From a virus (taxonomy: Duplodnaviria; Heunggongvirae; Uroviricota; Caudoviricetes), in IMG/VR virus record IMGVR_UViG_2541047165_000034: 9,620 nt of DNA, one strand, 5' to 3'. Shown here piece after piece: positions 353 through 3,070 of this stretch. Within the stretch, counting starts at the first letter, position 1, and the number at the start of each line of letters is the position of its first letter. The notes beneath the pieces were generated by a model. The model was not told the DNA's origin. It did not search any database and saw nothing but the letters and a program-made list of their open reading frames with translations. A program made the position numbers and the translations under genes.

Positions 353-535
353 GTCGAACAAAAAACAACCTTCTTCATCATCTTTTTTACATCAAAATAA
401 TTAAAAACAATCACTTACGCACATGATGATGATGACGATAAAATCAAAAAAATGCGCTTCTTTCCGCGCCGCCCGCCCCGTGTTCAGGCCCACCCCACCA
501 GGAGGACCCGCAAAAAAGGCGGCTGGTGCCGCCTT
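353..535. repeat. copy A of a ~180-bp imperfect direct repeat (partner at 2887-3070)
   Basis: Seen directly: shared blocks GAACAAAAAACAACCT, a purine trinucleotide tract (GATGATGATGATGACGAT versus GGTGGTGGTGATGGTG), ATAAAATCAAAAAAATGCGC, TCCGCGCC, CGCCCCGTG, CAGGCC, ACCCCACCAGGAG, CAAAAAAG, then a hairpin. The middle is AT-rich and variable. Confidence 0.8.
511..535 (-). terminator. rho-independent terminator downstream of the capsid gene
   Basis: Stem GGCGGC (518-523) / GCCGCC (528-533) with loop TGGT. On the minus strand it is followed by TTTTTTG (complement of 511-517). It sits immediately after the capsid stop codon at 540-542. Confidence 0.7.
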
Positions 536-539
536 GTTG

Positions 540-2429
540 TCATAGTGAATCTGTCCCGCCTGATTTGACCATACCGCGATAATCCAGAGCTGCCACACCT
601 GCATCAATACGGACTTTCCAGGCCACGCCGTCAACGATAAAACCTTCCTGCTGTTCAAGGTAAGGCTCGTCACTGCCATCAAGATAAGCCACCTCGATTG
701 TGTCCGTTCCCTGTGCGGAAAGCATGTACCATTGTTTTTCGCTGATATCATCAAGGCGGGGATCGACGATGATATCAAGTAGCTTGTGATACGGGTTAAA
801 GATCCCGCTGTTTTTATCAGCCCCGAAAGGTGCGGTTGAGTTAATCATCTGCAACGCGCGATCTTCCAGTGCTGCCGGAACTAAAAGGAATTTAGGCGCA
901 ATATTCAGCACTTCGCCATTTTTGTCCTTCTGTGTGCGCATCAGGTGACGTGCTGCACTAAGTCCCGGTGTTGTCAGTCCTGCTTCAATCAGGTTGCTGT
1001 GTTTTTTGTCAAACAGCGCTATTCCGTCAGAAAGTTTTACGTTGCCTGTAAGCACCAGATTAACCAGATTTCCCACCGTTCTTGATGCAGCACGGCCCAT
1101 AGCCATTGGCACCGTTGATAACTGATCAAGGTCATCATTGATTATCGCCTGGCGGGTAATGCTGAAAATATTCCCGTAAGTAGCCAGCGCGATGGGTTCA
1201 CCGCGATCGCTGGTGGTGATGTATTTATATTCTGCCCCTTCCGGCACTTTGTTTAACGTTGAGAAGCCATTCATACCAACGCGGCGGGCTTCCCGGAAGT
1301 TTGAAAGGGAACCTTTTTTCGTCCACTGGCGGAATGTTTCGCCGCTGTGCTCCCAGCCTGCAAGCACTGATTTTTCAGCGCCACCAGCAAGAATATCGGT
1401 AAAATCGCTGCTGCTGTGGGTGAATGCCGCGTTTACTATCTGCGAGCGTGTGCCGTAGCTGCCCGTGCTTATACCACGATGGGTTAATGATGCCTGTGCC
1501 ATATCGAAAAGGCTCATCATGGCGTAAGGATTACCGCGTTCGGCCCGTTCGTGACCAAGACGCGCATTAAGCCCCTGGCGCATTGCATCGCCGGTTATGT
1601 TGCCGTTATCCGTGTACGCGTAGTAAAGATTTGCGGGGGTGGTTTTGTTTGTTGGCGTTGATTCTTTACCCATAGCGAGTAAAAGGCGTTCGCGTGCATT
1701 CTCAACGCTACATTCTGAATCAGCAAGACAACTTATAGCCAGGTCGTTATATCTTCCGTTGAACGTGCCAAACAATTCACGGATGCCGTTAAGTCGTTCC
1801 TGTTCGCCACTGGTAGTTTTCTGGCTGATCATGCTTTTAATTTTTTCCGGCATATTTGAAAAATCTCCGATTCGTTTTGATTCAATTCGGGCCATTGCTG
1901 TAATCGCGGCTATAACCTCATCTGCGAAGCCGTTAGCCTTACACTCATTGCCATCCATCCAGGTTTCCGCCTCCATCATGGCGGTGATTTCCTGTTTGCT
2001 CCTGCCCGTTCTTCCGGCGTAGGTTTCCGCCATCGTGTCGCCCAGCTTGTCCATCAGGTCAGCAAAGCGGCGAACGTCGCCCGACACTCCGGCAGTAACA
2101 CCACGGGGGGCATGTATCATCATCATCGCGTTTTCAGGCATAACGATGTGATCGCCACACATGGCAATAAACGAGGCCATAGAAGCCGCCATGCCTTCAA
2201 TGTGTACAATTTTCTTTGCCGGATGATTTTTCAGGGCGTTATAGATAGCCAGCCCTTCAAAGATGTCGCCACCAGGTGAATGGATGCGAAGATGGATTTC
2301 AGACACATTACCGCACGCGTTGATCTCGTCAGTAAGTGCCGATGCCTTTACACCGTACCCGCCGATCTCGTCATAAATGCGCACATGTACAACATCTGCC
2401 ATAGCCTTAATGGAAAACCATGTTTTCAT
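540..2429 (-). CDS. prohead protease (ClpP/S14-like) - scaffold-like linker - HK97-fold major capsid protein, as one 629-aa polypeptide
   Basis: The N-terminal ~190 aa carry ClpP-like serine-protease motifs (HSPGGDIFEGLAIYN, GMAASMAS, MMIHAPRG). The C-terminal ~350 aa resemble an HK97-type major capsid protein. The start ATG at 2429 overlaps the stop of the upstream small ORF as ATGA. Confidence 0.85.
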   Translation of the reverse strand: MKTWFSIKAMADVVHVRIYDEIGGYGVKASALTDEINACGNVSEIHLRIHSPGGDIFEGLAIYNALKNHPAKKIVHIEGMAASMASFIAMCGDHIVMPENAMMMIHAPRGVTAGVSGDVRRFADLMDKLGDTMAETYAGRTGRSKQEITAMMEAETWMDGNECKANGFADEVIAAITAMARIESKRIGDFSNMPEKIKSMISQKTTSGEQERLNGIRELFGTFNGRYNDLAISCLADSECSVENARERLLLAMGKESTPTNKTTPANLYYAYTDNGNITGDAMRQGLNARLGHERAERGNPYAMMSLFDMAQASLTHRGISTGSYGTRSQIVNAAFTHSSSDFTDILAGGAEKSVLAGWEHSGETFRQWTKKGSLSNFREARRVGMNGFSTLNKVPEGAEYKYITTSDRGEPIALATYGNIFSITRQAIINDDLDQLSTVPMAMGRAASRTVGNLVNLVLTGNVKLSDGIALFDKKHSNLIEAGLTTPGLSAARHLMRTQKDKNGEVLNIAPKFLLVPAALEDRALQMINSTAPFGADKNSGIFNPYHKLLDIIVDPRLDDISEKQWYMLSAQGTDTIEVAYLDGSDEPYLEQQEGFIVDGVAWKVRIDAGVAALDYRGMVKSGGTDSL

Positions 2430-2620
2430 AGCCAGGCTCCTAACGTTGCCCTGTACCAGTATTCAACCGCGCTGCGTGTGATTTGTCCTTTCGTGGGCAC
2501 TGGCATACCCGGGTGATTATCTTTGATGAACTGCTGATAGCGTTCGATCTTCTCCATAGTTCCGGCGTCTATGTGTACCGTGGCACTTTTATCCGGCTTT
2601 CTGGTGTTGTTCTCTGGCAT
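2426..2620 (-). CDS. hypothetical small protein (64 aa from the ATG at 2620; 75 aa if started at 2653), translationally coupled to the capsid gene
   Basis: GGAGG sits 7 nt upstream of the ATG at 2620, whereas the ATG at 2653 has no Shine-Dalgarno sequence. Its TGA stop overlaps the capsid ATG. No family recognised. Confidence 0.55.
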   Translation of the reverse strand: MPENNTRKPDKSATVHIDAGTMEKIERYQQFIKDNHPGMPVPTKGQITRSAVEYWYRATLGAWL

Positions 2621-2886
2621 AAATCCGCCTCCGTTTTGATTAACGGGCATCATTATTGATCGATAAAAGTAATAGATAAATCATTTTCTACCTGAAAATC
2701 AGATTATGTTTTTTCTGATTATTCTCAGAAAGGCAAAGTTATTGACGCATTTTTGCCATTGAAGCAGTATTAAGACTCGTCATCCTGGCGATAAAAACTC
2801 CTTTGTCGTGTAAAAGCGCCTCCGGTAACAGCAATCGGGGGCGCTTTTTTTGCGCCTGTTTTTTGTAAATGTTTTCGGGAACGTTC

Positions 2887-3070
2887 CGGTGATGAACAAA
2901 AAACAACCTGATTCGACACTAAAAATTTTTATTTCTCAACATATCAATAGCTTATAGTGGTGGTGATGGTGCCATAAAAATCAAAAAATGCGCCTTTTTC
3001 CGCGCCCCTCCGCCCCGTGGACAGGCCACCCCCACCAGGAGTACCTACAAAAAAGCCGGATTTCTCCGGC
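2887..3070. repeat. copy B of the ~180-bp imperfect direct repeat (partner at 353-535)
   Basis: Same conserved blocks as copy A in the same order. It ends in a hairpin of different sequence but the same geometry. Confidence 0.8.
3047..3070 (-). terminator. rho-independent terminator downstream of ssb
   Basis: Stem GCCGGA (3055-3060) / TCCGGC (3065-3070) with loop TTTC. On the minus strand it is followed by TTTTTTG. It lies 17 nt past the ssb stop at 3087-3089. Confidence 0.7.

Follow-up and report, generated by a model that had tools for sequence, protein, structure and literature searches.

The stretch of DNA analysed here, IMG/VR virus record IMGVR_UViG_2541047165_000034 (9,620 nucleotides, hereafter the window), carries two copies of a repeat, one after the capsid gene and the other after ssb, that is, at the operon boundaries where an earlier note on this sequence had placed them. 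All long open reading frames (ORFs) of the 9.6-kb window lie on the minus strand. An island in E. coli E2855 that is 100% identical to the window adjoins tRNA-Ile between mug and nfeF, and RefSeq gives its gene order as integrase, 228-aa protein, alpA-like helix-turn-helix (HTH) protein, YlcI/YnfO, Icd-like protein, DUF4222, primase, 81-aa protein, SSB, 64-aa protein, ClpP-protease/major-capsid fusion, and 93-aa protein. This layout matches the gene order of Gram-negative phage-inducible chromosomal islands (PICI; PMC6092414, PMC10111431). Judged from its sequence, the window is a ~10-kb Gram-negative cos-type PICI, as it combines the appropriate size, the succession of int, alpA, primase with origin and late zone, a capsid gene and site-specific integration with the lack of terS. 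As set out below, we are confident that the two repeats are two lambda-type cos sites of this ~10-kb cos-packaged PICI, both located on the minus strand.

The features of the two units, named after the lambda sub-sites to which we assign them, are as follows (a slash marks a predicted nick or cohesive-end boundary).

347..509, minus strand: cos A as a whole, spanning cosQ through cosB; homology with copy B reaches as far as ~321.
512..535, minus strand: intrinsic terminator A, hairpin 518-533 (GGCGGC-ACCA-GCCGCC) with U6 at 512-517, after the capsid-fusion gene and abutting cosQ.
503..509, minus strand: cosQ of cos A, GGGTCCT, equal to the lambda cosQ core, 24 nt from the predicted nick.
464..482, minus strand: cosN of cos A, CACG/GGGCGGGCGGCG/CGG, alignable to GGGCGGCGACCT at the left end of lambda and to the first base of the cdtI record.
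422..437, minus strand: R3-position element of the type-A cosB, CGTCATCATCATCATG, at cos bp 42-57, corresponding to a trinucleotide tract of the earlier note.
375..382, minus strand: inverted partner GATGATGA, at cos bp 97-104, of which AAAAAGATGATGA is invariant in the type-A alignment.
350..370, minus strand: distal conserved block GGTTGTTTTTTGTTCGACATC, common to both copies and to phages, 90% identical between the copies and invariant in the type-A alignment.
2886..3046, minus strand: cos B as a whole, spanning the cosQ-like element through cosB; homology with copy A reaches as far as ~2859.
3049..3072, minus strand: intrinsic terminator B, hairpin 3055-3070 (GCCGGA-GAAA-UCCGGC) with U6 at 3049-3054, after ssb.
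3040..3046, minus strand: cosQ-like heptamer AGGTACT, matching GGGTCCT at 5/7 positions.
3001..3019, minus strand: cosN of cos B, CACG/GGGCGGAGGGGCG CGG, with the predicted top-strand nick between 3016 and 3015.
2957..2973, minus strand: R3-position element of the type-B cosB, GGCACCATCACCACCAC, at cos bp 43-59, conserved in 24 unique type-B sequences.
2942..2954, plus strand: perfect IHF consensus WATCAANNNNTTR (TATCAATAGCTTA), beside the R3-like element and conserved in the type-B alignment.
2886..2908, minus strand: distal conserved block of cos B, GGTTGTTTTTTGTTCATCACCGG, found by the repeat search, by blastn and in the type-B alignment.

That the copies consist of the same blocks in the same order, as had been noted earlier, is borne out by three comparisons. 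Their alignment shows 78% column identity over ~230 columns, pairwise blastn yields a match of 81% over 100 nt (E=3.9e-22) and a second, distal one of 90% over 21 nt, and a repeat search recovers the same pair as two repeats with a spacing of 2537-2538. The homology spans ~321-545 in copy A and ~2859-3078 in copy B, slightly more than the limits first drawn. The purine trinucleotide tracts (422-437 and 2957-2973) and the GC-rich block are likewise present in both copies. The unit is also shared with related elements: 968 E. coli records contain matches to the repeat, and the whole module with both copies occurs in 143 of 5,426 complete E. coli genomes. Furthermore, a 23-base cosQ-cosN pattern was found at 86 IMG/VR loci, 14 of which have two sites ~2.5 kb apart; searched against contigs representing one genome per species, the same pattern had 0 matches.

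Each unit is made up of a terminator hairpin, cosQ, cosN 22-24 nt further on, and a cosB of ~130 bp. When aligned to lambda, both copies display cosQ followed by a spacer of 22-24 nt and ACG/GGGCGG, the spacer of lambda being 23 nt (right end in the alignment: ...ACGGGTCCT-N23-/GGGCGG). cosQ is an exact GGGTCCT in copy A and agrees at five of seven positions in copy B. At cosN, where lambda-type sites have an ACG/GGGCGGCGACCT/CGCGG-like arrangement, both copies read CACG/GGGCGG... and then (G)CGCGG or CGG. The GC block of copy A reads GCGGGTCCTCCTGGTGGGGTGGGCCTGAACACGGGGCGGGCGGCGCGG on the minus strand, next to ACGGGTCCTTTCCGGTGATCCGACAGGTTACG/GGGCGGCGACCTCGCGG for the joined ends of lambda. 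The predicted top-strand nick of cos A falls between 479 and 478, with a cohesive end extending from ~478 to 467 whose right-hand nick is uncertain, and in cos B the cohesive end is predicted to start at position 3015, to which the first base of both the cdtI and the Tritos record aligns. Weaker BLAST matches, too, run up against the termini of linear phage records. In its right half, cosN is variable in both sequence and length, with 10-12 nt between the ACG/GGGCGG and CGCGG flanks even among phages (IMG/VR loci L007-L092), and the predicted cohesive ends of cos A (467-478) and cos B (3004-3015) would not anneal together.

In BLAST searches of phage genomes, cos A is 87% identical over ~170 bp to the spacer between Rz and terS of VT1-Sakai and several Shiga-toxin (Stx) 2a phages, and cos B is 89% identical over ~167 bp to that of phages 1720a-02 and CP-1639. 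The homologous stretches of VT1-Sakai and 1720a-02 lie between Rz and the genes of the small terminase (TerS) and large terminase (TerL), which is the position of cos in lambdoid phages. The phage protein encoded directly upstream of the large terminase (158 aa) belongs to DUF1441 in Pfam and to phrog_141, “terminase small subunit”, in PHROGs.

The region beyond cosN is organized like a cosB. R3 lies at bp 50-65 in lambda and at bp 48-60 in N15 (PMC9026076), and the R3-like tracts of both copies fall within cos bp 42-59, that is, at the position of lambda and N15 R3. The tract CGTCATCATCATCATG is nearly invariant among 31 unique type-A cos sequences, and the conserved blocks of copy A correspond to the invariant parts of this 31-sequence alignment. 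In lambda, R2 is inverted within the order R3-I1-R2-R1. GATGATGA likewise has an orientation opposite to that of the R3-like element and is a candidate R2-like element, a function suggested by sequence, whereas the distal block GGTTGTTTTTTGTTCGACATC is a candidate R1-like element that would mark the end of cosB. Together, the distal ...CGACATC and the inverted GATGATGA of copy A echo the lambda order. In copy B, the IHF consensus at 2942-2954 is the only perfect match in the window (0.55 expected) and is a candidate I1 site. We infer that the trinucleotide tracts and conserved blocks would act as the terminase-binding elements of cosB. At IMG/VR locus L091 (~1839, minus strand), a mosaic site combines the left half (cosQ-cosN) typical of this family with a cosB of the lambda type (CGCGGGTTTTCGCTATTTATGAAAATTTTCCGG...), which points to a modular exchange of cos sub-sites.

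Read on the minus strand, both units begin with hairpins whose existence as minus-strand intrinsic terminators, proposed in the earlier note, is confirmed by folding at about -15 kcal/mol in conjunction with U6. Terminator A folds with -15.1 kcal/mol (z -2.6) and terminator B with about -15 kcal/mol (centroid -14.9 kcal/mol, z -3.5), and the hairpins begin 6-16 nt past the stop codons of the capsid fusion (540-542) and ssb (3087-3089). Judged by hairpin, U6 and position after a stop codon, both qualify as putative rho-independent terminators. A scan for promoter and terminator consensus sequences listed neither of them, although folding shows both to be real; the scan probably missed them because the stems run into A/U runs, which leaves fewer than five T in the tail window. 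The GGCGGC hairpin stands upstream of all 23 island type-A cos copies, and the GCCGGA hairpin upstream of all 22 island type-B copies as well as of both EcCIDi14 cos sites. Four of the six pairs are the same in the two stems, and at the other two both partners have changed (G:C to C:G and C:G to A:U). Hence, the compensatory changes previously claimed do occur at two pairs, but with only two stem types among the 45 island copies the evidence for covariation is thin. Homology to phages ends at the U tract, and the spot of the GC-rich island hairpin is occupied in phages by an AT-rich palindrome. The terminators are real, but they form the non-phage edge of the unit. The AT-rich palindromes directly upstream of cosQ read GATGATAATCATTATCA in lambda (48455-48471) and AATGATAACCATTATCA in Stx phages (2984-3000 in locus L005, about 2985-3001 in L006), each followed by a T run. 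We presume that they resemble a Fur box.

The two copies represent two cosB types, each of which goes along with its own variant of the small terminase. Among the classified instances at the 86 IMG/VR loci, type-A cosB is followed by a TerS N-terminus of the VT1-Sakai type in 31/31 cases and type-B cosB by one of the 1720a-02 type in 21/21, and in all 21 phages with the type-B N-terminal domain GGCACCATCACCACCAC accompanies it; no island cos copy has a TerS downstream. Residues 86-158 are 100% identical between the two phage TerS proteins, whereas residues 1-65 have diverged. In lambda-type TerS, the N-terminal part binds DNA and the C-terminal part binds TerL, so the elements beside cosN appear to co-vary in phages with the predicted DNA-binding domain. 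The island itself encodes neither TerS nor Rpp: no match to Nu1 or DUF1441 was found among its proteins in Pfam, PHROGs or by blastp. The 93-aa, 75-aa and 81-aa proteins were considered as a hidden TerS or Rpp and rejected, as they had no Pfam matches, hit only families of unknown function in PHROGs, and had no blastp match to TerS-A, TerS-B, Rpp or Nu1. An island without TerS or Rpp would rely on direct mimicry of the helper cos. In the simplest reading of these sequences, the island has one imitation of its helper lineage's cos for each TerS variant, and most likely the two sites would let it be packaged by helpers with either variant of the small terminase. The capsid fusion of the island has its best phage homologues, at ~51% identity, in the very phages that carry the matching cos, in contrast to the 87-89% identity of the cos DNA. 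On one IMG/VR contig (2534682163_000012, loci L066 and L081), an island-type and a phage-type cos B occur together, and the island there may lie beside or within a helper prophage.

Following from these comparisons, packaging might proceed as follows. A helper phage would induce the island, which would excise and replicate from its own origin into concatemers. The small terminase of the helper (DUF1441 / phrog_141) would then bind the cosB repeats through its N-terminal DNA-binding domain, namely the CATCATC-type elements in copy A, and the CACCATCACC-type elements together with the IHF site in copy B. This binding would position the large terminase to nick cosN at ACG/GGGCGG, packaging would run from cosN to cosB, toward lower window coordinates, and it would end at a downstream cos with a working cosQ and cosN.

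A division of labour between the two sites can be put forward only tentatively: each cos would mimic the cosB of one TerS allele, and cos B would initiate packaging well and terminate it poorly. In lambda, cosQ is needed for termination and not for initiation, so that cos B, with its AGGTACT, may speculatively be able to initiate and yet terminate poorly. Among the island type-B copies, 20 of 22 have this heptamer, as opposed to 0 of ~57 phage cos sites. If true, poor termination at cos B would spare packaging runs that start from cos A an early cut there, which would yield a 7.6-kb molecule lacking the capsid cassette and bearing mismatched ends. It would also explain why two different cos sites are present in some PICIs, a question left open in the literature.

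Several points weigh against the assignment of the repeats as cos sites, or against the benefit of having two. The right-hand nick and the length of the cohesive end cannot be read from sequence, as the distance between the flanks varies from 10 to 12 nt. cosQ of copy B differs from GGGTCCT at two of seven positions and termination there may fail. EcCICFT073 can do without one of its two cos sites, and transfer even rose when that site was deleted (PMC6092414), so a second cos site need not benefit an island. The cdtI record is flagged circular, and its first base is therefore only indirect evidence of a physical end. Finally, the cos reading draws on the homology and position of the sequences, on their co-variation with TerS and on the stability of the hairpins, and it is from homology that we infer TerS binding, cutting and transfer for this island.

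A different account had been given in the earlier note, in which the repeat was an operon-boundary module acting in late expression, composed of a terminator and activator or antitermination sites, or a small RNA arising from the GC block. We consider it very improbable. The two hairpins with U6 are indeed credible terminators, conserved dyads lie downstream of each unit, and a strong hairpin at 2816-2848 insulates the capsid operon, which would hence need its own promoter or activator. However, the core has its homologue in phage cos, which is located between lysis genes and terS and not at operon boundaries, and the dyads lie outside this phage-homologous core and differ in geometry. The expected signs of regulation are missing as well: neither unit matched any Rfam family (all families, E<=1), with only chance matches in the iteron origin and at 2723-2893, the consensus scan listed no promoter-like site within the units and, in 1-4100, only one, inside the capsid gene, and in copy A the fold of the GC block is no more stable than that of shuffled sequence (z -1.07), altogether unlike a small or cis-regulatory RNA. 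Nor is there a conserved frame: the plus-strand ATG ORFs 423-545 and 2988-3365, tried as coding candidates, share their start region, and a 1-nt indel in the GC block breaks the common frame. What survives of the boundary module is its location, its terminators and its reuse, while its core is cosQ-cosN-cosB; the activator site, antitermination site and small RNA fall away in view of the homology to phage Rz-terS spacers, the alignment to the lambda ends and the lack of a promoter or an Rfam match. The opposite extreme, that nothing is there but two unrelated terminators beside a chance GC-rich similarity, might appeal to the ease with which GC-rich 6-bp stems coincide and to the mere two stem types, but it is refuted by the E value between the copies, by the 968 E. 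coli records and by the 86 IMG/VR loci, and is hardly credible at all.

A more serious competitor accepts cos A as functional and regards cos B as a decaying relic or as a by-product of the acquisition of the capsid cassette. The two mismatches in its cosQ would fit decay, as would the precedent of cos2 of EcCICFT073, which is dispensable and whose deletion raised transfer, and the head-gene cassette is bracketed by cos copies both here and in EcCIDi14. In opposition to this, cos B has kept the left half of cosN, the R3-like tract, the IHF site and the distal block, with 89% identity to phages and across 22 island copies, the change in cosQ is one fixed variant rather than scattered decay, and both copies are retained in the 143 genomes. 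Hence, we regard a non-functional cos B as rather unlikely.

Beyond the units, two dyads had been described upstream of the next operons.

317..338, strand not assigned: dyad CAGATT-N10-AATCTG, 35-56 nt before the start codon (ATG) of the 93-aa gene, outside the cos core.
2697..2720, strand not assigned: dyad AATCAGA-N10-TCTGATT, 77-100 nt upstream of the capsid operon ATG (2620), not in the repeat.

Both dyads exist downstream of the units as stated, but they are separate from the repeat, lie outside the cos core and are unlike in geometry. Their interpretation as two copies of one operator was rejected, as the spacing differs (CAGA-N14-TCTG as opposed to CAGA-N10-TCTG). It is plausible that both are operators distinct from the repeat. 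Dyad 317-338 may be such an operator; its class, with 6-bp arms, is common, with 38 in the window compared to 16.4 +/- 3.6 in shuffles. CAGAT-N12-ATCTG, however, occurs exactly twice in the window (0.26 expected), at 317-338 and at 7455-7476, the latter being 68-89 nt upstream of the alpA-like gene, and the pair may be a shared operator, for instance for AlpA. Dyad 2697-2720 retains its 7-bp arms in diverged islands such as L010, in which spacer and flanks change. It is positioned behind the strong hairpin 2816-2848 and upstream of the capsid operon, and is a candidate activator or repressor site for the head genes. That hairpin, between cos B and the capsid operon, folds with -27 kcal/mol on the plus strand, followed by T7, and with -18 kcal/mol on the minus strand, and might serve as a second insulator or terminate an unannotated plus-strand transcript.

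Elsewhere in the island, the repeat search revealed a dense iteron array of GGTGAACAGT in both orientations at 3800-4036, downstream of the primase gene, which is presumably the replication origin. A 16-nt inverted repeat, ACTGGATTCCAGTATA / TATACTGGATTCCAGT, at 6771-6786 and 6836-6851, in the divergent region before the plus-strand ylcI-like gene, is probably an operator pair. The island is bracketed by a 21-bp direct repeat, AGGATACCTATAGGATACCGT, at 11225 and 21347 of locus L001 (10,122 bp), which begins 48 bp past tRNA-Ile and is a candidate for the att core.

The cos sites decide which helper phages mobilise a PICI. By setting the helper range, they would shape the spread of the island among E. 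coli, including Shiga-toxin strains with a matching Stx prophage cos and TerS. Mimicry of two helper cosB variants without Rpp would be a concrete explanation for duplicated cos sites in satellites. Furthermore, the two cosB types and the two TerS N-terminal domains provide natural allele pairs for the study of packaging specificity in DUF1441 small terminases, a family far less studied than lambda Nu1. For annotation, an otherwise ordinary consequence is that the feature should be labelled “cos” and not regulatory RNA.

Comparison with lambda cos places the units in a familiar scheme. Shared with lambda are GGGTCCT in copy A, the left half ACG/GGGCGG of cosN, the arrangement of an R3-position element, an inverted partner and a distal direct element, the IHF consensus between elements in copy B, and a T-rich block just before the terS position. 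As differences, the cosB sequence of the island is unrelated to the R3/R2/R1 of lambda, cosN has another right half of variable length, DUF1441 / phrog_141 takes the place of Nu1 as cognate small terminase, and a GC-rich terminator replaces the AT-rich palindrome upstream of cosQ. 

A second known system is EcCICFT073 (PMC6092414, PMC6739421), a Gram-negative PICI that also has two cos sites with lambda-like cosQ and cosN, one of them at the start of the late/head-gene zone. Its two sites are functional, and cos1 is read by an Rpp-TerS heterodimer (PMC6092414). However, its sites have the lambda cohesive end GGGCGGCGACCT and a cosB unlike that of any helper, read by Rpp-TerS, whereas the present island is without Rpp and closely follows phages in both cosB regions (87-89% identity). 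With a phage-like cosB and no Nu1 or DUF1441 match, it does not belong to the Rpp-dependent PICIs. EcCIDi14 (L002) has three cos-like sites, at ~8127 (minus), ~5687 (minus) and ~4995 (plus). Those at ~5687 and ~4995, near rpp, resemble the published cos.1 and cos.2 of EcCICFT073, while the third, after ssb, has the type-A cosB of Stx phages and is homologous to the present unit; we found no mention of this third site in the published text.

SaPIbov5, SaPIbov4 and the HE-PICI 11capE are reminiscent of the present island in lacking terS and in having a copy of the helper cos and a capsid homologue. SaPIbov4 has two putative cos sites, and in 11capE a stretch of 258 bp at the cos position is 90% identical to that of its helper (PMC10111431). 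In contrast to the present case, their helpers are of a different lineage, and to our knowledge two sites matching two helper cosB/TerS variants have not been described for them. Duplication of cos in PICIs is thus already known, and what may be new is the combination of two helper-type cosB variants in an island devoid of Rpp, together with the variant cosQ.

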